Source: Octopus vulgaris
Taxonomy: Eukaryota
Direction of reading: 5' to 3'
NCBI GenBank assembly: GCA_951406725.2
Contig: OX597825.1
Coordinates: 46,624,001-46,688,000, forward strand
DNA length: 64,000 bases
The position numbers and the translations under genes were made by a program. Below the pieces are notes generated by a model. It was not told the origin of the DNA. It saw nothing but the letters and a program-made list of their open reading frames with translations, and did not search any database. Positions 13,152-58,475 of the stretch are shown one piece after another. The stretch's first letter is position 1, and every line of letters starts with the position of its first letter.

Positions 13152-13470
13152 ACTCTCGTGGAAGCGCCATCCAACCAAAATGCAAATATATGGGAAACTA
13201 CCACCTGTGTCATCTCTTGTGAAAGGTAGGAGAGTCCAGTTTGCTGGACATTGTTGTAGAGCTGAAAAAGAAGTAATTTCTACTCTTCTCCTCTGGAAGC
13301 CATCTACTCGCAATACCAGAGGGCGCACACTCTCCTACCCTGATGTAATCTCCAGGGATACAGGCATCCAGCAACAGGACCTCCGTAATGCCATGATGGA
13401 CCGTGAAGTCTGGTGTAGCATGGTAAATTCCATTGTCTCGACCACGGTCGAACAATGATGAATGATGATG
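13152..13470 (+). mobile_element. 5'-truncated copy of the RTE LINE at 33484-36771, inserted into a SINE
   Basis: LSWKRHPTKMQ...VSTTVEQ* near-identical to the end of the 1041-aa ORF; (TGA)n tail; a shorter copy lies at 27451-27583. Confidence 0.92.
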
Positions 13471-18959: not shown

Positions 18960-20375
18960 CTGGTAATCTGTCATCCAATTCAATCAGCAATCTGGCACTA
19001 ATTTCAGCTAGAAAAATTTCAAATAATTTCAAGTTTCCCAGGTTACCACACCAACTGGCTGGTATGATTTTTGGTGCTACTTACTGCATAAGCACACTCG
19101 CATCATTTGTAAACAAAGGCAGGCCTTTCCAATTTGTTTTTTTTCCATTTATTATTATACCCTTTTCACCTTTAGACCCAGCCATGGTCCCTATGCATAA
19201 AGGAGGTGCTTCATGTGGGGTAAAGTGTAAACACTGTACTTTGTCCTTAAAAGAAAAAGTTGAGCAGATGAAAAAATTTGACAGCAGTGTGTCTGTGAAG
19301 ATTGTGTGAATTATACAACATAGGATCTTTGGCAGTTTACAACATAAAAAACTCCAGAAAGCTCAGTTATTCCATTCCTTTGCTAACAGTGAATCAAAGA
19401 AACAAATGTGTAAAAGGAAAACAATGATAGCTGGCAAAAGTGTAGAACTTGATCACACATTGATGAAGTGGTTTAAATTGTGTGAAAATGAAGATGTTGA
19501 GCTGTCAGGTGATCTTGTAAAGGAACAAGCAAAAAACATTCCATGAGGAACATGGACTGGAATAAGAGTGTGATTACAGTGAAGGTGGCTACAGTGTTTC
19601 AAGGATAGATATGGGTTAATGTTTTGTGCTGTGTGTGATGAAAAGCGATCAGCTGAAAATGCTGACCACGAAATTGTGCAGATGATTGTAAGTCCTTAAC
19701 AGCAAGACAGTGAAGGAGAAAGCAGTGATAAAAATGAGGAAGATGTAAGAGAAAAAGTTTCTATTCATCAGTTTATTCAGCCAACAGGTGAACTGCTAAA
19801 AGGTCTAGAGGAAGAAATAATGAACTGTTATATGCTGCAGGATAAGCTAATTAAAGAAAGGCCAAGATATACAAAACAGCTTAGCTTGCAAGTTATGTTA
19901 AAAAAAAGTAACTAGAAAGTATACAACAGAGGTGTCATCACTTGAAAATCTAGTGCATTCAACATCATCTTGCCCAGATGTGCTACCGCCATCACAGTCA
20001 GTTCCTGATATTTCACTTACCTTACAAGATGATGAAGATGGGAGTCCTGACAGCCCTTCACCTCAAGGTGATAATTCTGATATCCCCTCACCTCAGTGAT
20101 GATCTTTGTATATGTCAACAGAATTAGTGTACCAGTCCAGTACTTTACCACTCATTTTACCAGGGTTTTATTAAAATTTCATTTGATTTCATTAAAATTT
20201 CACTAAAAGTTCATTTGATGTTTCTCTTTTCCTTATTAACCAACTTGTACTGACTTACAGGGTATTTTACCTAACATAACCTAACCAATCATACTTAATC
20301 AATTGATAATCTAGCAAAATCACTAATCTGGCATTCTCCTGGTCATAATGATGCCGGATAAATGATTGTGTAGTG
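18960..20375 (+). mobile_element. Tigger/pogo-like DNA transposon relic (CENP-B-type HTH, internally deleted)
   Basis: LSLKEKVEQMKKFD..., ELDHTLMKWF, LSGDLVKEQAK, SEGWLQCFKDRYG across frameshifts; boundaries approximate. Confidence 0.7.
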
Positions 20376-20740
20376 TACCTACAAATATATGAGACACCGC
20401 TTTGTAAAATGCCCTCAGTTGATTAATATGTATGTTACCATCCTACTCTTTCTTGACTGGAAGGTGAACATAGATTTTAAGTCAGATACATTGGTTTCTT
20501 GAAGAATTCTAGATTCCAGAAAAACATTAACTCAATGATAATAAATCTCTGAACGAGGTATAGACAGTAACTGCACGACAATGTGAAGTATATTTGCCAT
20601 CTAAATATGGCTAACCACTAAGGGTAGATGTTCCTGTAGCTTGTAGCCCCAGGAGAAATCTTCTCCAGCTGGCTGTTGACACACTTTCTGTGCCCTATCG
20701 GTATTTGCAAAGGGAGGTCATCCCTCCCTCGTCAACCTAA

Positions 20741-20799
20741 GTGATATGCACAGACTGCAGTTTCTGGGTATTGACCCGTCATCAGCGCACGGCAATCAC
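20741..20799 (-). ncRNA. Type I hammerhead ribozyme with complete core
   Basis: - strand GTGATTGCCGTGCG-CTGATGA-C-GGGT CAAT ACCC-A-GAAA-CTGCAG-TC^TGTGCATATCAC; palindromic stem III; bulged stem I; predicted cut between 20753 and 20752. Confidence 0.8.
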
Positions 20800-20800
20800 C

Positions 20801-22387
20801 TTTCTCTTTATTATAGGCATGTAGACTGAATATAAAAAAAGGACATTACAATTTACATACAAAACAATACAAAATTTGGGGTACATAAAACAAATAATGA
20901 ATATGAAATGAGTTATGTGTAATGGGAAATGGAATGGCTTACGAGTCCCTCAAGCTCGCAGTTTCATTTATACATTTTGCAACTGTTCCACTTATCCATC
21001 AGATATATATTCGATGACATCCTCCATCCCAATCAAGTTGGGCAGGCTATCATAGCGAACGTCTATTTTACTTACTTTAATCTTTTCTTTAAATGTCTCT
21101 ACCAATTTGTCTATTTTTTCTTTTTCTATTAACACCGCTCTAGCGCTTGGATCGAACATGCCGTTTTCTAATTTCACTCGTATCAGTCCTTTTGTTTTTG
21201 TTAATCTTTTTTCAATCTCCATATTTTTTTCATAAAAAATTAAGCTTCTTATGTTTTCTCCCGTAGGTCGTCCTGTTTGTTTTACATGATTTACTCTCTA
21301 AATCACCTCCCTCCTCCATTCTCCGCATTTCTCTTTTCTGGCTTTACCCTCTTCACTCATTGTCACTGTCTTCAGTTCCTGGGTTCGAATCTCTGTACTT
21401 TTTCTAATTGCTGTTGTCTTTCTTCCTTCATTTTCTTCCACCCTTGTTCTCTTTCTTTCCGCCGTTTTTTCTTCAACTTTTTCTTCTTCCTCTTTTTCTT
21501 CTTTCTCTGCTCTCGCTGCGTCACTGCACATTTTCCCCTCTTTTGCCTGCGCTTCTCTTAGGGGACACCTTGCTTGCATATGTCCCATTCTTTTACAGTT
21601 ATAACATATTGGTGGTCTCCCCTCCACCACCACTCTCAGTCGAGTTTCGTCAGGGAGCACTAACTCTTCTGCAATGTTGTACAAATCTGGCAGGGTTATA
21701 TGTATCAATGCTTCCACACCATAACTCCACCAGTTGACGTCTCTCGATCTTTCAACCTTTAGGATGTCCACATCCTCCCTACAATTACAAATTATAGCTG
21801 CTACAAGTCTCTCTACCTCTAATTCCGGCGGCACCTTTCCTATTTTCACCTTGGTTGCTCGTTTTTCACAATAGGACGAGAGAAGCATCCACCTAGCTGT
21901 TCTTAGTATCATGGTAGCATGTTTCTTGGCCTCCTCCTCACTTTCAAACTGCACCTCCACGGTGGCGAACTTCCTTCCTCTTGCGTAGGAGGTCGTGCTG
22001 TCTTTAATTTCCGTAAGACATTCCTCAATGTCGTCTGTTTCTGCCACTTCTATTTTCTTGTTGGTCACACTCCACATTCTATATACAATAATCTTTTTCC
22101 TCGCTTTTTCTGCATCTTCCTCCGGCGGTGTGATCCGTAAGCAATCACCCTCCTTCTTGAAATTTTCGAAATATTTCTTCAAACCTTCCTTCTCAATTAA
22201 TACTTCTTTCAGCTGTAACATGTCAGCTGACAGGCTTTTGCCTGCTGCCTGGGCGTAACTTATTGTTTGCATACCCACAAAGGGTAGCTACAAAATAATT
22301 TTCAAAATTCAAACAATTTCTAATAACAATTTCTACAACTCACAATATCATAAACTCCAACTCCGCAAAAAGCAATACTTCAACGAC
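20801..22387 (-). mobile_element. ORF1-only non-LTR retroelement, unit 1
   Basis: TSD gcgcacggcaatcacc (20785-20800) / gcgcatgacaatcacc (22388-22403); AATAAA 6 nt from 3' end; no RT or endonuclease. Confidence 0.8.
20992..22272 (-). CDS. Gag-like/LINE ORF1p-like protein (RRM-like region, CCHC zinc knuckle, charged linker, unknown C-terminal domain); one in-frame TAG at 21298-21300
   Basis: MQTISYAQAAGK...GRPPICYNCKRMGHMQARCP (CX2CX4HX4C); ORF 20992-21222 is in the same frame beyond a single TAG. Confidence 0.8.
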
Positions 22388-22403
22388 GCGCATGACAATC
22401 ACC

Positions 22404-24038
22404 TTTCTCTTTATTATAGGCACAATGGCCTGAATGCAGAGGGGACATAACAATACAATACAGGACATGGGGTACATATATTAAAAATACAAAAAGGATG
22501 ATATGAAATGAAATGAAATATTAACAATGAATTAAATGAAATGACTTACGAGACCCCCAAAGCTCGCAGTTTCATTTACAATGAAATGATTACAGTTATA
22601 CTATCTGGGGTGTTCGGCCGTAATGTAAACGAGTAATTCATCTTGCTCTATAACTCCGGGCAAACTGTCATATCGAACATAATGCACCATGGCCACAGCT
22701 GTATCTGAAAACAAATTTCTTAATTTATTTACCGTCTCTTTTTCCACTATTGCAGCCTTCATTTGGTTATCGTATATTCTCGGGTTCAATTTTACTCTCG
22801 TTAGATTTTTCGTTATTGCCAATTTTTTCTCAATTTCTTTATCTTTTGTGTACAATATTACAGCTCTGAGATTCTTTCCTTTAGGTCTTCCTCCTTCCTT
22901 GCATACTTTCAGACATTTTTCCACTTTTGCTGACTATTTTTCCCATTCCTCCCACCTTGAACCTCCACTCAATTTAGTTGCTGCATCTCTCCCTTCGTGT
23001 GTTCGATCCTCTGTCTCGTCAGCATACTTCTTTTTCTTTTTTTGGTCTTTGGGTGGTGATTCCACCCGTGTTCGCTTTCTATCCTCTTTTTCTTGTTCTT
23101 TCCCCTTCCTTCTCTTTCACTAACTCGTCGTCACTTTCCATATTATCTCCTAAATCCTCTGTCAAAGCTCTTATTGCTTCCTCCAGTGTTATCTTCTTCA
23201 CTTGTATTTCTCCTTCAGGACACACATCCTTCATGTGCCCTCTTCTCTTACATTTATAACACACCGGAGGTCTCCCCTCCACCACGACTCTCAGTCGTGT
23301 CTCATCGGGGAACACCAACTCCTCCGGGATGTTATACAAATCTGGCATGGTTATGTGGATTAAGGCTTCTACCGCATAACCCCACCAGTTTATTTCATTC
23401 GACTTTTCCACCTTAAGTATGTCCACGTTCTCTTTGCAGTTGTAGATTATTGCAGCTACTATTCTTTCGGTATCAAGTTCCGGTGGAATTTTGCTTATTC
23501 GTATCCTCGCCGCTCTTTTTCCGCAATAACTAGGGAGTAATACCCATTTTTCCGATCTCAACACTGTCGTTGCGTTCCTTTTCGCTTCATCTTCATTTTT
23601 GAAACGAACGTCTACCGTAGCGTATTTTCTACCTCTATTGTAGAAGGTAGTTCTTCCTTTTATTTCTTGTAGACATTTTTCAATCTCTTCCACTTCTGCT
23701 TCTTCTAATCTTTTTGAGACCACATTCCATGTTCTGTATGTTATGGTTTTTTTCTCCTCTTTTTTCACTTCGTCTTCAGGTGGTGTAACCCTCAGACAGT
23801 CTCCTTCCTTCTTGAAGCTGTCGTAGTATTTCCTCAGATTTTCCTTCTCGATAATTATTTCTTTTAACTGTAATTCGTTCGCAGCCAGGCTTTTGCCTGC
23901 TGTTCCCGCATAAGTTTGGGCTTGCATACCCAACAAAGAATTCAACAATTCAACACGACGCAACAGTTTCCAACAACAATAATCGACAAAATTCAACTCA
24001 CAACCGCAAATCCGAAAAACCGACACAAACACCTCCGC
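22404..24038 (-). mobile_element. ORF1-only non-LTR retroelement, unit 2
   Basis: TSD 22388-22403 / gcgcgcgacaatcacc 24039-24054; 3' end tttctctttattataggca shared with unit 1; AATAAA 6 nt from end. Confidence 0.8.
22601..23927 (-). CDS. Gag-like/ORF1p-like protein, paralogue 2 (frameshift near 23100, TAG at 22934-22936)
   Basis: MQAQTYAGTAGK...GRPPVCYKCKRRGHMKDVCP; C-terminal ORF 22601-22924 homologous to that of unit 1 (RVKL...VRYDSLP). Confidence 0.78.
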
Positions 24039-24062
24039 GCGCGCGACAATCACCGGTTTTCG

Positions 24063-25922
24063 CATTTCTTTATTTGGCACTAAGGCCACAACACAGAGGG
24101 GACACTACAAGGACAGACACAACACCACAGTGGGGACAATAAACATAAAACGGATGAAAATGAATATTATATAATAATGACAAATGAAATGGCTGCATGG
24201 GCCCCACTCCACATGCAGTACCATTGGAACGTTTTTACATTCTGTTATTACAGTCTTATTTTATCTGATTTTTCCTCTTTTTTTCTGTTCATTAAATGTC
24301 ATTTTTTCTTCAGAAATACTCTTTCCTTTCTCTTTTTTCTTTTTTTAAAAAACTTTTTTGTTTTCCTTTTAACGCTTCATATACTGCTCCAGCTCTCTCA
24401 GTTCGATTACTGTTGGCAGCTCATTGAACTCCACTACCGTTCTGCCAGGGTCGATTCTATCACCGCACCTGTCTCTAAGTTTTTCATAAACCACCTTATC
24501 GGCGACCAAACCTTTCACTCTCTCAGAGTACGTGTCTCTGGGCATTTTCACCCTTACGATGTTTTTAAACTTCAAAATTTCCTTTTCCACTTCCTTGTTT
24601 AGGTAAAAAAATTCCATTGTTTCTTCCCTCCTCTAGGCTTTCTCCTTTCTTCCTCTCCCAATATAGGTTCCTCTGTACTCTTCTCTGAGGCTGGAACAAT
24701 ATTCTTCTCTATCTCCACTATAAACAGTTTCTCCATCTCACCCTCTTGTAGCTGAGTCTCTGAAACTTCTGCCAAATCACATGTCGTCCTCATCCTTGTT
24801 TCCTTCTTCTCTGGCTCATTGTCACACAACTTCTTAATTATTTTTTCACTTCCCTTCTTCGCCTTACTTTTGTTATCTTTCTTTCTCATTACGTCTTCCT
24901 TTTCCACCTCTTCTTTCTTCTTTTTCTGGTCAGTCAGTGGCGGGCTTGCCCTACCGCTCCTCCTTTTTCTTTCCACTGTCGTGAAACCCTCTTCCGCTGC
25001 TTTTTCACTACTCTCGACCGTCTCTGCCTGTTCGATATTTTCTTGATTTTCTCTCTGTTGTTTCTGTGGGCATCTCGCCTTCATATGTCCCTTTTCGCCA
25101 CATTCAAAACACACCGGCGGTCTGCCCTTCACCTTCGTTCTCAATGAGAAACCGTCAGGCAACACTATCTCCTCGGTTATTCTATTGAGGTCTTCTACTG
25201 TTGCCTGGATTGTTAATTCCAATCCATAGCCCCAGTAGTCCTGCATATATGTTCTGCTGGCCTTTAGTATTCTGGCCCCATCTTTCATGTTATACATAAT
25301 GGCTGTCATTAGCCATTCCTCCTCCAGCTGTGGGAGGGGGAGGGCACTTGACCGACCGGAACTTTCGCTACACGTTTTCCGCAATATGATGGCAAAAGGA
25401 TCCATACTTCCGAACGAATTGCCTCCATCGCATATTTTAATGCTTCCTCCTCCGATCTGAATCGCACATCCACAGTGGCATACCTTCTGCCTCTCGTTCT
25501 GAAGGTTATAAACTTTTTAATGCCTTCCAACACTTTTACAATTTCTTCTACTGCTGCTATTTCTATTTTCTTCATGGCGACCTTCGTGGTCTTGTAGGTC
25601 ACCGTTTTCTTTAGTATGCTGTTCGTCAGCTCTTCGGGTGGCGTTAATTTTATCGTTTCCCCCTCCTTCTTTATCAGCTTCTCGCAAGCTTTTATTTTCC
25701 TGTCGTCGACTAATATTCCATAAGTCTTTAGTGTTCTTTCCTCTGCTCCTCTCCCAGTTGTAGCTGCATAGCTGCGGCCGCCTGCTGGCGACTTCTCCAT
25801 TTTCCTCAATGGGAAAATATAACGACACAAAAATTAAACAATATTAACAATGATAACGACGACCAGCAAAAATGAACAATTAATTACTCACATTAACGCT
25901 CCGACTTCAACAACTCGAAAAA
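24063..25922 (-). mobile_element. ORF1-only non-LTR retroelement, unit 3 (more divergent family)
   Basis: TSD aatcaccggttttcg (24048-24062) / aatcaccagttttcg (25923-25937); AATAAA 6 nt from 3' end. Confidence 0.8.
24369..25800 (-). CDS. Gag-like/ORF1p-like protein, paralogue 3 (frameshifts near 25340 and 24620)
   Basis: MEKSPAGGRSYAA...RGRRYATVDVRF...LLPSYCGKR and GRPPVCFECGEKGHMKARCP; C-terminal ORF 24369-24617 homologous to units 1 and 2. Confidence 0.75.
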
Positions 25923-26220
25923 AATCACCAGTTTTCGGTGGAGGGTCCCAATGCAAATACATATATCCTTTTTCCAGTGGCTTTCGTCACTGATCTTGAA
26001 AAAGTGTATACAAGCAATAATAAATCTCTGAACGAGGTATAGACAATAACTGCACGACAATGTAAAGTATATTTGCCATCTAAATATGGATAACCACTAA
26101 GGGTGGATGTTGCTGTAGCTCGTAGCCCCAGGAGAACATCTTCTCCAGCTGGCTATTGACACACTTTCTGTGACCTATCGGTATTTGCAAAGGGAGGTCA
26201 TCCCTCCCTTGTCAACCTAA

Positions 26221-26281
26221 GTGATACGCGCGCACTGCAGTTTCTGGGTGGTGTAACCGTCATCACCGCACGACAATCACC
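26221..26281 (-). ncRNA. Second hammerhead copy of the retrozyme, core mutated
   Basis: GTGATGA instead of CTGATGA and GTG instead of GTC at the cleavage triplet; stem I CGTGCG/CGCGCG and GTGAT/ATCAC retained. Confidence 0.65.
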
Positions 26282-26846
26282 GGTTTTTGATTGACGAAAG
26301 CCACTGGAAAAAGGATATATGTATTTGCATTGGAACCCCTCCATTGAAAACTGGTGATTGTCGTACTCAGAAACTGCAGTCCGTGTGTATCACTTAGGTT
26401 GACGAGGGAGGGATGACCTCCCTTTGCAAATACCGATAGGGCACAGAAAGTGTGCCTATAGCCAGCTGGAGAAGATGTTCTCCAGGGGCTACAAGCTACA
26501 GTAACGTCCACCCTTAGTGGTTAGCCATATTTAGATGGCAAATATACTTCCCATTAACTCAATAGCTTTATATCAATTAACCACATAGATGTTTTATAAA
26601 ATTTCTTCTGCTGTTGCTGCTTTAAATCAAATTGGTGGCAGAAGTGGGATTTTCTCCTAGGGTGTAATTTTTCTTCCAAGTCCTTTCTCCTGTATCAAAA
26701 ATTAAAAATAATGTTCTTTTCTTTGTTCAGTCAAACACAATTTTTCTAGCTGCTATGTATGTACTAAGTTTATTCTTAAACTATTTGACTGAAGTTTGTG
26801 TGAGCTTAGTCCATGTCTACTATTTTTTTGTATAGAATTATATTAT

Positions 26847-27013
26847 TGCAGTGTGGAAGGTGTTTATAAGCCAGCACGGAATTTTGTCAGTGAAATTTTG
26901 GCGTGGTCTCAAAGCGACAAAAATATTTTGGCAAATTAAATTTAAATGCTGAAGTGAATCTAACGGATTTTGTGTGTTTCTTAAATGGCTTATAAACACC
27001 TTCCACACTGCAA
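26847..27013. repeat. Short inverted repeat pair (MITE-like)
   Basis: ttgcagtgtggaaggtgtttataagcca ... tggcttataaacaccttccacactgcaa. Confidence 0.6.
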
Positions 27014-27676
27014 TTGTTTTCGTTCCAGCACATGATCTCAGATCAGGTCACTTGCTATGCAAGTACATCTCTGTAATTATATTGTTATTTCATTGGTAAG
27101 ATTCATCTTTTGTTTCTATATTCCTTAACATGACTTGACTTGTAAGTTTCCTTTATAACTAGGCTTGTGTGACTGGTTGTCATCTTATTCTCATCTCTTA
27201 TCCTGAGAAAAGCTTCAGCCTTCTGCATTCATTACAATTAATAATTATCTTTAGTCCTGGCCCTTGCTTGAATGATTTTGTACATAAAAATTGGTATTCA
27301 GCAGACCAATCATTCTGAGAGATTTATAGTTAGCTTTATTCTATTCTCATCATGCACCCCTAATTAGATGCTTCAACTTACACAGTTGACACACAGACAA
27401 CATTAATATTGGTGCTAATCTCTTGTATTGGACATTTTAGTCCACACAGTAGGGCGCACACTCTCCTACCCTGATGTAATCTCCAGGGATACAGGCATCC
27501 AGCAACAGGACCTCTGTAATGCTATGATGGACCGTAAAGTCTGGCGTAACATAGTAAATTCCATTGTCTCGACCACGGTCGAATGGTCGAAGCTTCACTT
27601 ATCGTTCATGTTCTTTTAACAGTTTTTCAAAGCAGTAGCAATAATTTAGTTGATGCTACCATGAAGTCAATGTGAA

Positions 27677-27995
27677 GGTGCATGACTCAGTGGTTTGAGC
27701 ATCGAGTTTACAATCGTGAGGTTGTGAGTTTGAATCCCGGACCTGGCTGAATGTTGTGTTCTTGAGCTAGACATTTTATTTCATGTTGCTCCATTTCACT
27801 CAGCTGTAGAAATGAGTTGCGACCTCACAGGTGCCAAACTGTATTGGCCTTTGCCTTTCCCTTGGATAACACTGGTGGCATGGAGATGGGAGGCCAGTAT
27901 GCATGGGCAACTGCTGGTCTTCCATAAACAACCTTGCCTAGGAGCGTAACTTTCTAGGTGCAATCCCATGGTCAGTCATGACTGAAGGGGGTCTC
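27677..27995 (+). mobile_element. tRNA-derived SINE (second family)
   Basis: ggtgcatgactcagtggtttgagc...gagtttgaatccc A/B boxes followed by SINE core-like gttgctcca-ttcactcagctgtagaaatgagt. Confidence 0.65.
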
Positions 27996-30606
27996 AAAAA
28001 TCAACACGGATTCAGATCACAGGCTCAGCAGTGCATGCAGATGAATTCTGCTTCTGAATTTTCTTCATCCCATGCAAGGAAACTCTCTAAGCAGCCAGAA
28101 GATGCAACAAATTTGCCAAATCCTAATATAAACATCCACTTACTTAATGTGGATTACAGAATGTCAAAAATGACTTTAATTGATACAGGGGTTCAGGTTC
28201 CTATATTGCCTTTAATTTTTTTCCTTTTCTTTTGGTTGGGGAAGAAAATTATCCTCATCTTTTAACATCCTTGTTCTATGCTGGCATATGATAGACAATT
28301 TCTATAGGTGGATGTCCTTCATAATGCCAACCACTTTGAAGAGTGTGTGGAAAGCTTATTTTTGTAGCATCAGTACTAGTGAGATTAACATACAGCTTGC
28401 AAGACTAAGATCTTCTTTGACTGAGTGGAGCTAGGGTAGAGAGGGAGTCTGCTTTCTGCTAGGAGATGAAAGAAGGAGTCACAAGAGAATGTCTTTCTTG
28501 TTGTAGAAGGGCTACATAGCTACTCACATAGATGAGTGAGTGGAAGTAACTTGGTTAGAGTAAGAAAAAGAGGTAAAATAGTATTGTTGAAGTGTCATGG
28601 TGGACTTTCAATGAACAAGAAGGCGAACAGAAATGCATGAAGTGAGAACAAGAAGTAGTTGGATAGAGCTTGCAAGAGAATGAGAGATAGTTAGAGATGG
28701 AGAATGGGAAAAGAAAAATATAATGAATAAAGAACAAAGGTTTCAGGGGTGGTCTATGATAAATATACTTTGGAGAGAAAGTATTGAAGTGATGATTGAC
28801 AATACAGAATATGATGAAGAGAAGTAGAATAGTAACAGTAATACAGTAGACAGGAAGGATGAGAGAGGAGTGTGGGTGGGTGGGTTGCAAGAGCATGATG
28901 GGAAAGAAGGCAAACAGTGCATGGAGAGAGTGAGAGATGTCTGGTAGTAAAGAAAGATAGATAATTTGGTGGCACAGAAGATTAATCAATGTAAAATGTG
29001 AGAGAAGAGGGAAAATATTAAAAATAAAGGATGGATTTAAGTGAAATAGTTCCAGGTAGTGAGAAAGATAATTAACATTAAAGAAAGTGACAATGAAATA
29101 TACAGTTCTGCTTTCATTTAACATCAGTTGCTGTATACTACAGTAGGGCAAGTGATGGTAATGATGACTGATGATTAATAGCTTGAGGAGAAAATTCAGC
29201 TGGGGCCCCAGTTGTGTGTGTGACATACATACATACATACATACATACATGCATGCATATATGCAGGTTGTTCAGATTAAATTTGATGATAATTTATGTC
29301 TCCTCTTTTCAGGAACAGCTTGATGTATTAGTGAATAGTTAATGACATTGGAGAGCAATAACAAAGTTGTAGTTGAGAAAAAGTTGGCTAACATGGAGGA
29401 CTAGAAGTCATCTAAATATTAGAAGAGTTACTTGTATCATGATGGTTCATGCTGGGTATTAAAATAGGAACATTATAAGTGTAGTTCAATGTTCTGTGAG
29501 CACTGTAAGGGCCATGTGATGCAACATGGATAATCTTTATCTTTATCTTTATCTAGTTTCAGCTCATGAGTTGTGGCCATGCTAGAAATTTTTAGAATTT
29601 ACTATATAAAAATGACATTTGAAAAAATTGTGTTTCTTTTGTGGTTCAATGTATTTAGCTTGTGAGATAGAGAGTTTAGAGGCTCCATTTGAGAATTAAT
29701 TCAGGTGAGCCTGGTAATGGCACTTAAAATCAATGGTTCTGCCAATGTAAACCCTAGTCTGGTGGGAATGTGGGGTGATTACTTGACATTTATATATGAC
29801 GTTATAGAGTAAATGAAATCCATCTAACAGACATAGTTGGAAAACTTGAAAATTTCAGGTTTTCCTACCAGGCTTAGAATTAATTCCCATTCTGTGCTGA
29901 TTTTTATGACCAGTTATCTTCAATGTAGGACCAGAGGTGTTACCATTACTTGTATGGGATTGGGAGAGGACATCACCACTTCTGATGTGTTAGGGGTTGG
30001 TGAAGTCATAGAAATTATTTGACAACCACTTCTGCCTTTTTCTAGAAATATGGCAAAGAGCTGTATCCTGCTGCCACACATTAGGCCTTCCAGCAGCAAT
30101 CTCTCAAGTCATGGTTTGCCCAGAATCTCCAGCAGCTTCACATAGCCATCTGATTTGAACCTAAGGCCCTGTTAAAAGTTATAGGGAAGCATTTTCACTG
30201 GAGACACATTTGGGGATGAACTTGGTTTTCATGCTGTTCATGTCAATTCTAGAATTGAAGCATAAGTGTAACTATGATGTTTTAGTGATCTGATGAGCTA
30301 GCTTTTTTTATCTGCTCTGATTTACAAATGTATAATTCTATTGTATAATGTGTGGCATGCATTTAAGTGCAGACATGTAAAATTATTTATCATATACTGA
30401 AATTATTATTACATGATGAAAGCTCACATGTTACTTCAAGTCTTTTGTATAGAAATAGGTTCTGATGCATACATTTTTGTGCATTGCAGCCAAAAGAGGC
30501 TTTGTAGAAGAAGAAAAATCGTATTTAACTAACCAATTTCTAATCTGCTAATCAAAGTTCAGTAAGGATTATATGATGAATTAAATGAATGAATACACGT
30601 TATAGT

Positions 30607-33483: not shown

Positions 33484-36400
33484 TCATCATCATTGTTCGA
33501 CCGTGGTCGAGACAATGGAATTTACTATGTTACGCCAGACTTCACGGTCCATCATAGCATTATGGAGGTCCTGTTGCTGGATGCCTGTATCCCTGGAGAT
33601 TACATCAGGATAGGAGAGTGTGCGTCCTCTGGTATTGCGAGTAGATGGCTTCCAGAGGAGAAGAGTAGAAATTACTTCTTTTTCAGCTCTACAACAATGT
33701 CCAGCAAACTGGACTCTCCTACCTTTCACAAGAGATGACACAGGTGGTAGTTTCCCATATATTTGCATTTTGGTTGGATGGCGCTTCCACGAGAGATTTT
33801 GAGCTCTCATAAGGAGGCGAGTGTAGGTTCCATCCAACCGCCTCTCAAGCTTCTTATAGTAGCCATATAGTAGAATTGGTTCGACTGTGGCTTTGAATAT
33901 TTCAAGTTTGAAGTCTCTACTTAGATTTGATGACCAGATCTTATGCATGTCATTACAGGCTGACCAGGCCATACCCTTTCTAGTTAGAAAGTCTTTTCCA
34001 GATGATGATATGTATGACCCAAGATATTTATAATCAGAAACCATATTTAAAGGCGCACTGTTGAGAGTATGGATGATGCAATCACTGTTGGACAGGCACT
34101 TGTTTATGTATTCAGTTTTGGCCTCATTGAGGTAAAGACCTACACAATTTGAGACTTGTTCAAGAGATTGTAAAAGAGACTGGGCATTGGAGAGAGAATC
34201 ACTGATAAGAGCGATGTCGTCAGCAAAGTCAGTGTCTGTCAAGTACTCAGCTGGGTGTCTGGAACTTCTTCTTGGTTTTATTTCAAAGCCCTTGCCAGAG
34301 ATGGTATCAACTGACATACATAGCACATAATCAACAACAATGATGAAAAGAAATGGGGCGAGTGTGTCTCCCTGCAGTATTCCGGCTTTGATTGAGAAAG
34401 ATGATGTTTCTCCATCAGGGGTTAAGATGGTTGGAGACGTATCTGTGTAGAGGACCTTGATGGCAGAAATAATTTTGTCTGGTATCCCATAGAGCTTAAG
34501 GATTTCAAACATCTTGTACCTATCTACAGAGTCGAACGCTTTAGAAAAGTCTACAAATACCATTGCAAGATCGCGATGAAATGCTTTTGATTCTTCAATA
34601 AGTCTGCGCAGGCATAGTATCTGGCTCAGCGTTGAGCGCCCATGTCTGAATCCATTTTGGTTCTTTCGGAGCAAAGGTTCAACAAAAAGGACAAGACGAT
34701 TTAGGATCAGTTTGTTGTACAGTTTTGCAGCAATTGACATTAGAGATATACCCCTATAGTTGGTTACGAGGGATAAATCGCCTTTTTTGGGTATTGGAAT
34801 GATTTGAGATTGGTGCCAAATCTTTGGAGCGACAAAGGTGGAAAGTGCGTGGTTCCAGAGGTTGAGCAAAAGTGTGTGAAATTTATCATCCTTCCAAATT
34901 ACAGCTGGGATGTTGTCGGGACCAAATGCTTTCGAGGCTTTTAGTTGCTTGGTGGCTGCTGTTAGTTCAAATATGGTAAAAGGGGAGGTGTTGATGTCCA
35001 GCGTGTCTGATATAGGCACACTTGGAAGAGTGGGGTTATCAGGGATTTTGGCATTCTTCTCAAGGAGGTTTTTAAAATGGGTTGACCAATTTTCTAAACG
35101 CTTCTTAGCTGATCCCCCTTTAATTCTAATTGATGACCCAGAATTTTTGCCTGATAGGTCTTTGATGGATTTCCAGGCGAGATGGTGTTTTTTACTAATG
35201 TGCTCTTTCGATAGTTTACTAATTTTGCCATTGATAAATTCGACCTCGGCGTTCAAGTAAGCCTCATCAAGATTCCTCCTGGCAGCTATGAGTTGGATCT
35301 TCAGTGACTGGGATGGAGAACGGTGGTAAGCTAGTGATATAGACTTTATATGGTTTCTGGCTTCAATGACATTTGGGGAATTAGAAGGTTTGCTCTGGCC
35401 CCTACTCTTCTTTTTGGGAAGAGTAGCCAGTGCAACTTCCTCTGTTGATTTGATGAGGCTGCTGTATACTTCTTCAATGTTCTCAGCATCTATTTCAGAA
35501 GTAGACAGAGATTGAAATGTGTTATAGACCTCAATAGTAAATTGTTTGGACATATCGGGGTTAGATAAGACTTCCTCCCAGTCGATCATTTTGATCGGGT
35601 GAGGCTTAGTTTTTTTGGATGAGCGAAGACTAAGCTTAACGGTAGCTGATACAATTCTGTGGTCAGAGCCGACAGAACTAAAGGAAGAGTAGGATCTCGA
35701 GTCTTTAACACTATTGCGCCATTTCTTTCGAAAGATGAGGTAGTCAATTTGTGCCCTATCACCAAGTGGGGACTCAAATGTCCAAAGTTGACGTTTTGGT
35801 TTCATAAAAGAATTGTTGGAGGTGTAGAGATTAAATTCCTCCAAGAAGTCTTTGAGCATTTCTCTGTTCCGATTAGTTTTAGAGTTGAAAGTAAACTTGG
35901 TCTCATCGGGTCCTAGTCTAGCATTCAGATCACCAGCTATAACTAGAAAATTATGGAGAGGTACTTGCTCAATGGTTGAACGAAGGGTTGTATAAAAATT
36001 TTCAATTTCGTCTGCCACAGACGAATTATGTGGGCTATACACACATACCAATGTTGTTTTGGGGTTTCCATCTATCTCAAGTACCATAATTCTAGGTGAG
36101 ATTGACTCTATACTCAAGAGAGTATCACTAGCTTTTGATGAAAGTAGAAATCCGATACCTCCAACTGTTGAATTAACAGTATTCTTTGATGCTAAGGAGA
36201 TTACAAGTTGATAAGAACCGACTTGATGGTATTTGAGGATGTTGTCAGGGTGGTAAAATCGGTGTTCTTGGACAGCTATTATATCAATGCCATGTGATTC
36301 TGCATTTGCACCAAGTTCTTCTAGACGGCCAAGAGAGCTGAGGGTGCGGGCATTGAGGGTGCTGAGTATCGTATGATTTTTACAGCTGATGAGGTGTTTG

Positions 36401-36771
36401 TTTGGTGTTGTTTGGTTGGGAGCTGACTCTTCTCCATCAGGTGATACCCGTCTGTTAAGATTGAGGGCATCACCGTCAATGGATGCCCTTGGAGGTGCAA
36501 CATGATCAGAGACAGGACCCGGCAAAGCAGGGGCTGGACCTACATCCGCAGGTATACCATTAGGTCTGGTTCCCTGGGGAAGAGGAACCCTGGTGCAGTT
36601 AATTGTAAATTCCATAGTCTTTTCAAATGGCTAATAATGTGTGCGCGCACCACTACTACACACATTGGAAAGCAATGTACAACCAAGTACTAAAAAAGAT
36701 CTTTCCTCCTCCATGAAACAAAGCTGTTCCCGCTGGACGTCAACCAGTATTTCTAAGCTACGGACCGAGTG
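33484..36771 (-). mobile_element. Near-intact full-length RTE-clade LINE
   Basis: 10-bp TSD ataaatctta (33474-33483, 36772-36781); (TGA)n tail; single 1041-aa ORF. Confidence 0.95.
33490..36615 (-). CDS. APE endonuclease plus reverse transcriptase of RTE LINE
   Basis: TLNARTL, AVQEHR, GDLNAR, IDY, SDH (APE); NYRGISL, DFSKAFDS, GILQGDTLAP, FADD, YKYLG (RT); no internal stop. Confidence 0.97.
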   Translation of the reverse strand: MEFTINCTRVPLPQGTRPNGIPADVGPAPALPGPVSDHVAPPRASIDGDALNLNRRVSPDGEESAPNQTTPNKHLISCKNHTILSTLNARTLSSLGRLEELGANAESHGIDIIAVQEHRFYHPDNILKYHQVGSYQLVISLASKNTVNSTVGGIGFLLSSKASDTLLSIESISPRIMVLEIDGNPKTTLVCVYSPHNSSVADEIENFYTTLRSTIEQVPLHNFLVIAGDLNARLGPDETKFTFNSKTNRNREMLKDFLEEFNLYTSNNSFMKPKRQLWTFESPLGDRAQIDYLIFRKKWRNSVKDSRSYSSFSSVGSDHRIVSATVKLSLRSSKKTKPHPIKMIDWEEVLSNPDMSKQFTIEVYNTFQSLSTSEIDAENIEEVYSSLIKSTEEVALATLPKKKSRGQSKPSNSPNVIEARNHIKSISLAYHRSPSQSLKIQLIAARRNLDEAYLNAEVEFINGKISKLSKEHISKKHHLAWKSIKDLSGKNSGSSIRIKGGSAKKRLENWSTHFKNLLEKNAKIPDNPTLPSVPISDTLDINTSPFTIFELTAATKQLKASKAFGPDNIPAVIWKDDKFHTLLLNLWNHALSTFVAPKIWHQSQIIPIPKKGDLSLVTNYRGISLMSIAAKLYNKLILNRLVLFVEPLLRKNQNGFRHGRSTLSQILCLRRLIEESKAFHRDLAMVFVDFSKAFDSVDRYKMFEILKLYGIPDKIISAIKVLYTDTSPTILTPDGETSSFSIKAGILQGDTLAPFLFIIVVDYVLCMSVDTISGKGFEIKPRRSSRHPAEYLTDTDFADDIALISDSLSNAQSLLQSLEQVSNCVGLYLNEAKTEYINKCLSNSDCIIHTLNSAPLNMVSDYKYLGSYISSSGKDFLTRKGMAWSACNDMHKIWSSNLSRDFKLEIFKATVEPILLYGYYKKLERRLDGTYTRLLMRAQNLSWKRHPTKMQIYGKLPPVSSLVKGRRVQFAGHCCRAEKEVISTLLLWKPSTRNTRGRTLSYPDVISRDTGIQQQDLHNAMMDREVWRNIVNSIVSTTVEQ

Positions 36772-57798: not shown

Positions 57799-58475
57799 AA
57801 TTTCTAAATATCTCAGAGAGATATAAGCAGTGGTGGTATGATAGAGCAGTTGTATACTGTTAACTTAACATGACAGTCCCATAAAGGGAATCACACCACC
57901 ACTATTTAGCCCTAGGAAGCATCAAACGCTTCCTGTCGGCCTTGACACATTTCCTGTATCCTTATGTTTACAAGGGGGAGACAAGCACCCCCATCCAGCT
58001 AAGCCTGCATCCAGAGACTAGTTTCTGAGTCTTGCTCGTCATCAGTCTGGAGTAGCATGGTTTGCTAACTGCAGATGCCTGTCTAGACCTTGTAAACATA
58101 TATAATTCCAGTGAAATAAATCCACTGATCACAAAAAATAGAAATGTAAAATTTCTAAATATCTCAGAGAAATATAAGCAGTGGTGGTACGATAGAGCAG
58201 TTGTATACTGTTAACTTAACATGACAGTCCCATAAAGGGAATCACACCACCACCACTATTTAGCCCTAGGAAGCATCAACGCTTCCTGTCGGCCTTGACA
58301 CATTTCCTGTGTCCTTATGTTTACAAGGGGGAGACAAGCACCCCCATCCAGCTAAGCCTGCATCCAGAGACATGTTTCTGAGTTTTGTTTGTCATCTACT
58401 TCCTAGGGCTAAATAGCAGTAGTATGATTCCCTTTATGGGACTGTCACGATAGGTTGACAGTATACAACTGCTCT
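57799..58475 (-). mobile_element. Retrozyme-like insertion: 1.7 tandem ~351-bp hammerhead monomers plus inverted segment
   Basis: 13-bp TSD aacatatatttta (57786-57798, 58476-58488); repeat starts at 57799 and 58150; inverted piece 58398-58475. Confidence 0.85.
58010..58051 (-). ncRNA. Type I hammerhead ribozyme
   Basis: - strand TCCAGA-CTGATGA-C-GAG CAAGA CTC-A-GAAA-CTAG-TC^TCTGGA; complete core, 6-bp stem I, palindromic stem III. Confidence 0.85.

Follow-up and report, generated by a model that had tools for sequence, protein, structure and literature searches.

Three ORF1-only retroelements stacked in the head of an octopus hammerhead repeat, probably inserted by related L1/Tx1-group LINEs at Pol II start sites

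How did three retroelements come to lie head to tail in one short repeat, at two slightly different insertion points and next to copies of the same repeat that hold no insert? We addressed this question in a 64,000-nt stretch of Octopus vulgaris DNA (contig OX597825.1, positions 46,624,001 to 46,688,000; hereafter the window). The array and its surroundings comprise:

20538..20800, minus strand: downstream retrozyme monomer body, with the hammerhead at 20738-20800
20785..20800, minus strand: 16-mer 3' of unit 1, forming the 5' arm of stem I of the hammerhead
20801..22387, minus strand: unit 1, ORF1-only non-LTR element, 1587 nt, inner offset class
20992-22287, minus strand: ORF of unit 1, interrupted by one stop
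22388..22403, minus strand: 16-mer separating units 1 and 2, composed of target duplication and unit-1 leader
22404..24038, minus strand: unit 2, ORF1-only element, ~1635 nt, inner offset class
24039..24062, minus strand: 16-mer leader of unit 2 (24039-24054) and, overlapping with it, the unit-3 duplication in its 3' copy (24048-24062)
24063..25922, minus strand: unit 3, ORF1-only element, 1860 nt, outer offset class
25923..25937, minus strand: 5' copy of the 15-nt unit-3 duplication
25938..25995, minus strand: retrozyme segment preceding the array on its 5' side, which contains a TATA-like box and has a putative promoter role
25996..26289, minus strand: upstream retrozyme monomer, empty, beginning at the putative start site (~26289)
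26290..26555, plus strand: inverted retrozyme copy adjoining the 5' end of the dimer, hammerhead core deleted

On the minus strand, positions 26338-26372 of the inverted copy read ...ACGACAATCACC|AGTTTTCAATGGAGG, an uninterrupted junction with no insert. Rereading this interval bears out the preliminary description of the locus, according to which the sequence left of 20800 is continuous, in the inverted copy, with the sequence right of 25930. The same description called this an empty allele. The unbroken site is real, but it belongs to a paralogous copy of a dispersed repeat family rather than to an allele. This copy has a TATA-like box at 26316 and its empty site at 26343-26364, and ~19 nt with the hammerhead core are missing between 26364 and 26365. 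Another empty site, in direct orientation, occupies 26267-26289; in the upstream empty monomer, the first base of the hammerhead core is mutated.

The 16-mers at 20785-20800, 22388-22403 and 24039-24054 differ from one another at one or two positions. Unit 3 is bracketed by 15-mers (24048-24062 and 25923-25937) with one difference between them, and these coordinates uphold the 8-nt shift that had been proposed between the unit-3 duplication and the 16-mers of units 1 and 2. Duplicated 16-mers are indeed present at units 1 and 2; they are not purely target-derived, each being partly carried by the element. Unit 1 ends at its 3' side in AATAAAGAGAAA. In the segment upstream of the array, the first T of the TATA-like box is at 25965, 28 nt before the unit-3 duplication.

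The hammerhead at 20738-20800 has, in order, a stem I arm, CTGATGA, stem II, GAAAC, a palindromic stem III and GTC. Its core has 83 distinct matches in the fetched loci against one in the reversed sequence, and 66 of the 83 have the stem III palindrome. Stem I pairing reaches 91%, as against 75% (maximum 81%) with shuffled arms, a contrast open to inflation by kinship of the copies; compensatory pairs are seen, one position alternating among G-C, A-U and C-G. When folded as a single strand, the hammerhead does no better than shuffled sequences (z -0.6 to -1.1), and the case for it thus rests on motif and covariation. A search of window positions 19000-28000 against Rfam gave no hit at E<=1, and we therefore rejected a tRNA, snRNA or rRNA as the target of the array; a sub-threshold HH9 hit, in one of six loci, was the only Rfam match to the repeat.

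Judged by its sequence, the host is an abundant type I hammerhead repeat similar to retrozymes and Penelope pLTRs, with 3208 first-look candidates in the 2.8-Gb genome. Published accounts of animal retrozymes and Penelope pLTRs agree with it in size, motif and arrangement (PMC7229834, PMC8557442, 10.64898/2026.07.22.740005). As in those accounts of non-LTR retrozymes and pLTRs, the repeat is short (~360 bp), has a palindromic helix III, and occurs at the fetched loci both head to tail and as inverted truncated pairs. In contrast to those systems, the host is known here from sequence, and no autonomous Penelope-like partner was found among six fetched GIY-YIG loci (of 148 matches), none of which contains the repeat. 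At one of these loci (L266, ~1950-2250, matched strand), ~70-nt tandem repeats lie downstream of the GIY-YIG frame and have no canonical hammerhead match. The window itself contains a second hammerhead repeat, from another retrozyme family, at 57985-58063 on the minus strand; this copy is empty and has a TATA-like stretch upstream.

The three units are 1.6-1.9 kb long with one ORF each. The ORF of unit 2 is disrupted near 23100 and 22934 and that of unit 3 is spread over three frames; in a unit-1 relative (L033) it is open for 431 aa. The encoded protein is predicted to contain two RRM-like domains and a CCHC knuckle (pLDDT 85), followed by a charged linker and a ferredoxin-like domain of ~95 aa. 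This C-terminal domain has no Pfam family and no Atlas hit, and its model (pLDDT 69.5) gave generic ferredoxin-like matches (best Z 5.9). It has 33 homologues, with Octopus names in nine of the ten looked up, and the named homologues of the unit proteins are likewise from Octopus species. We found no endonuclease, reverse transcriptase (RT) or ORF2 match in any of the three units. The preliminary description had the units cutting their own target; lacking both enzymes, they must leave the cutting to a partner, for which we identified a candidate family (see below).

Target duplications of 13-21 nt flank full-length and 5'-truncated relatives of the units, as expected of target-primed reverse transcription. 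On sequence criteria, we classify the units as ORF1-only, HAL1-like non-LTR retroelements. HAL1 (half-L1) is described as a non-autonomous derivative that encodes ORF1p only (PMC5753468). The octopus units are similarly non-autonomous and encode only an ORF1-like protein; they differ from the HAL1 of that account in an independent origin in an octopod, in their target preference and in the additional C-terminal ferredoxin-like domain.

A pattern joining the element tail to the target head matched the genome 67 times and a reversed control 10 times, and the junction is thus not due to chance. We fetched 60 stretches from these matches and identified 13 (L121-L133) that represent one autonomous family, mostly spanning ~5.3 kb. 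In 11 of the 13, the 5' part encodes an ORF1 related to those of the units. The family's ORF1 has a zinc knuckle and is without the ~95-aa C-terminal domain; its ORF2 has APE, RT and zf-RVT domains (Pfam). The best solved relative of ORF2 is human L1 ORF2p (1.7e-57, versus 1.4e-23 for R2). No named Tx1 sequence occurred among 120 listed homologues or ten clusters looked up; the Tx1 label is used here for resemblance, and the membership features that the sequence displays are those of the L1/Tx1 group. Related autonomous elements of this group likely supplied the endonuclease and RT for the units.

The window also contains an RT element at 33490-36630, which we considered as the partner and rejected because its RT is unmatched inside the 5.3-kb autonomous copies. 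It is a different LINE, with a 1046-aa APE and RT frame on the minus strand. A 309-nt inverted repeat pair (13153-13461 and 33487-33795, 98% identity) overlaps the end of this frame.

We identified 481 candidate copies of the autonomous family in a search with its 3' end, and the best 30 all abut a retrozyme head, 29 directly and one through the head-derived leader of another element. The query came from a filled site; these 30 copies are its nearest relatives, picked solely on element sequence, and share 94-96% identity with it. At 27 of the 29 loci other than the query, identity of the 150-nt flank is 52-94%; the flanks of the remaining two, a distant retrozyme family and an array case, did not align. 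By simple arithmetic, 10,000 hosts with a 12-bp window each would make up ~4 in 100,000 of the genome. The preference for a multicopy target that is typical of the Tx1 clade is thus seen in all of the 30 best copies.

The relatives of the three units differ in their sites (each count includes the window's own copy, and the classes for units 1 and 3 were read by eye). Three retrozyme families account for 27 of the 30 unit-2 relatives, which sit there on heads or on leaders derived from heads. Unit-1 relatives with a 3' end (27; three of 30 loci without one were left out) occupy ten heads, two leaders, three copies of one LTR and 12 sites elsewhere. The 27 unit-3 relatives that remain after the same exclusion of three of 30 loci are found at two heads, four copies of the same LTR, three other LTR-like heads, the 5' end of another ORF1 element (3) and 15 sites elsewhere. 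By the sequence around their insertions, the element families target retrozyme heads. The earlier idea of one small target does not hold, since other retrozyme families, LTRs and a U1 gene are also used.

Unit-3 relatives recur in a short LTR that precedes a primer-binding-like site and a gag-like frame (L072, L075, L246-L252, L256, L258), and several copies are clustered on one contig. Other unit-3 relatives (L073, L077, L078, L245, L248) share one common AT-rich target and are partly segmental copies.

In 62 junction records, the tail signal is separated from the target head by 4-8 nt in 44 cases and by 12-14 nt in the other 18, and gaps of 9-11 nt are absent; the pattern ends at 14 nt, and two of the records (L167, L180) are not element junctions. 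Two offset classes ~8 nt apart, with nothing between, thus exist well beyond the window, as the array had suggested. Inner-class tails are of the GAGAAA type, and outer-class tails are of the GATTT, GAATTAA or GAAATG type. The offset had been expected to separate a clade of units 1 and 2 from that of unit 3. In an ORF1 tree of 62 of the 102 elements (40 had too little ORF1 and were dropped), both classes occur inside the unit-1 clade and likewise inside the unit-2 clade, with tails that match the class. The offset therefore follows the 3' tail and is probably set by the autonomous partner that recognises it. Elements of the unit-2 family with outer-class tails are nested together within it (support 0.72-0.95); truncated autonomous copies also fall into both classes, a weak split (support 0.6, nine rows).

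Full-length copies have 5' leaders that match a former target. One copy (L043) has the leader of one retrozyme family and is seated in another, and two more (L214, L227) show a comparable mismatch of leader and host. The 5' end of a unit-2 relative (L226) corresponds to U1 snRNA from +1 to ~+20. This stretch is of the U1 variant present in L261, and such a head is SINEU-like. Because the duplications are partly element-borne, the three 16-mers in the window differ. Such leaders suggest that transcription began at the start site of the preceding host.

Several observations place the insertions near putative transcription start sites. Of 18 retrozyme sites inspected, 15 have a TATA-like box whose first T precedes the duplication by 25-41 nt, with distances of ~25-32 nt in the outer class and 34-41 nt in the inner class. 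Unit-3 relatives in the short LTR family lie 27-33 nt past TATAGA. TATAWA occurs 30-31 nt upstream at four of 19 further sites (background 4%, P = 0.006, for a window picked after cases had been seen); all four are among the six full-length copies, truncated copies giving 0 of 13, and two of the four look LTR-like. Four retrozyme copies begin at positions 62-65, which is the putative start. Finally, a junction with U1, predicted beforehand from the leader of L226, was found once among 42 U1 matches, with none in the control: at this locus, within a U1 cluster, the tail of an autonomous relative directly adjoins +1 of a complete U1 snRNA. This is a single 5'-truncated copy with no duplication and no U1 promoter on its upstream side, and the U1 evidence is thus one-sided. 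Further points against a start-site reading are unit-1-like copies ~50 nt past TATAGA in an LTR (L045) and the sites with no recognised target (12 of 27 unit-1 and 15 of 27 unit-3 relatives).

The insertion site immediately precedes the hammerhead on its 5' side, at a distance of 25-41 nt downstream from a TATA-like box. We consider it probable that the units, stacked in the head of the hammerhead repeat, were inserted by related autonomous L1/Tx1-group elements that home on Pol II start sites; sequence comparison demonstrates that retrozyme heads are targeted, and from promoter distances and junctions we infer that start sites are. The first nick would fall at about +1 to +3 in the outer class (unit 3, autonomous family) and at about +8 to +11 in the inner class (units 1 and 2). 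The duplication would place the element directly behind the host start site, so that the host promoter would drive it and the first 10-25 nt of the host would travel with it as a leader. New insertions would always enter beside the promoter, and the order unit 1, unit 2, unit 3 follows from this model. The likeliest route would be tethering to the pre-initiation complex, by analogy with TRE5-A at Pol III genes. Somewhat more tentatively, but still as the view we favour, octopod L1/Tx1-group LINEs and their ORF1-only satellites may be hyperparasites that have no promoter of their own, exploit those of other mobile elements and integrate by position at Pol II starts (retrozyme heads, LTRs, U1), with new copies stacking on the promoter side.

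Sequence specificity of the Tx1 type offers a different account, which we regard as less likely although it retains real weight. Partner endonucleases would read a loose motif in the retrozyme head, with registers and targets that differ by partner, and proximity to start sites would only reflect selection for transcribable masters, to which we give the same limited credence. Target choice is reported to be mainly set by the endonuclease, and Tx1 targets include transposons and U2 (PMC4494074). A loose AT-N7-YGG is common to the outer-class junctions of four retrozyme families and U1, and sequence reading may thus contribute. However, this motif fixes ~5-6 bases and by arithmetic has about a million occurrences in 2.8 Gb, too many for the motif alone to yield 30 of 30 copies on retrozyme heads. 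It is absent from LTR heads, and an outer-class subfamily of unit 2, inserted in another retrozyme family, is off register yet keeps the 26-30 nt TATA spacing.

Start-site targeting must also be weighed against composite spread, in which a few founder insertions (retrozyme plus cargo) were copied by Penelope-type machinery and the targeting is only apparent. We think this improbable as a general explanation. In L179 (2125-4785) and at the L123/L124 junction, an inverted truncated element has been copied together with its host at 97-98% identity, an arrangement described for Penelope-like elements (PMC8557442); these loci suggest that such machinery can copy filled retrozymes. Since L179 and L123/L124 were co-duplicated with their host, not every filled copy is an independent event. 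Against composite spread as the main route, near-identical elements occupy hosts far more divergent than themselves, elements and hosts are incongruent in the 30-copy sample, 5'-truncated autonomous copies (L182, L196, L199) have duplications of their own, and the element lineages and junctions are numerous and distinct. Local tandem duplication with later divergence, to which the shared 3' junction and 62% identity of units 1 and 2 might point, can be dismissed, because each unit has relatives of 91-99% identity elsewhere, alone in the same target, as against 62%, 49% and 52% among the units (unit 3 also differs in length, tail and offset), which bears out three separate insertions.

Parts of the preferred reading, insertion at Pol II start sites, have precedents. 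The account of the target-specific Tx1 clade in PMC4494074 already describes preferences for transposons, LTR elements and snRNA genes: Tx1 inserts in Tx1D, Keno in U2, and Tx1-Mar, Tx1-8_Crp and Tx1-4_AMi in LTR elements, and transcription of SINEU from flanking target sequence is proposed there. The octopus elements resemble this clade as APE-type L1-group elements with multicopy targets that include other transposons and snRNA genes. They differ from that account in having the head of a hammerhead repeat as target, and in that one lineage group, labelled Tx1 by resemblance, uses unrelated targets (retrozymes, LTRs, U1) at a common promoter distance.

Position-specific insertion is likewise known, from Pol III genes: Dictyostelium TRE5-A and NLTR-A and yeast Ty3 insert at a fixed promoter distance, and the TRE5-A ORF1p binds TFIIIB subunits (PMC5911963). 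The octopus elements would share insertion at a set promoter distance, judging from TATA spacing and one U1 junction. In contrast to those elements, which are described as inserting upstream at Pol III genes, they lie at or just after the putative Pol II start, in sense orientation and mostly in mobile elements. The available text of an octopus repeat annotation reports active L1-Tx1 and Penelope families, and the terms 'hammerhead' and 'target site' are absent from that text (PMC13282606). A full-text search, with Repbase reports and subscription papers outside its reach, returned no title or abstract start on LINEs that target hammerhead repeats or Pol II starts.

For APE-type LINEs, target choice is commonly attributed to the sequence preference of the endonuclease, and the position-specific cases covered in the review PMC5911963 are confined to Pol III genes. 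One element group on unrelated sequences at a common promoter distance makes tethering to Pol II start sites directly testable, and the natural offset variants and ORF1-only versions provide built-in comparisons. Filled sites also mark likely retrozyme start sites. The ORF1-only copies also speak to the question of why ORF1 is retained in such elements. Six other loci (L141, L144, L146, L174, L175, L253) contain additional head-to-tail arrays of ORF1-only elements, with up to three or four units.
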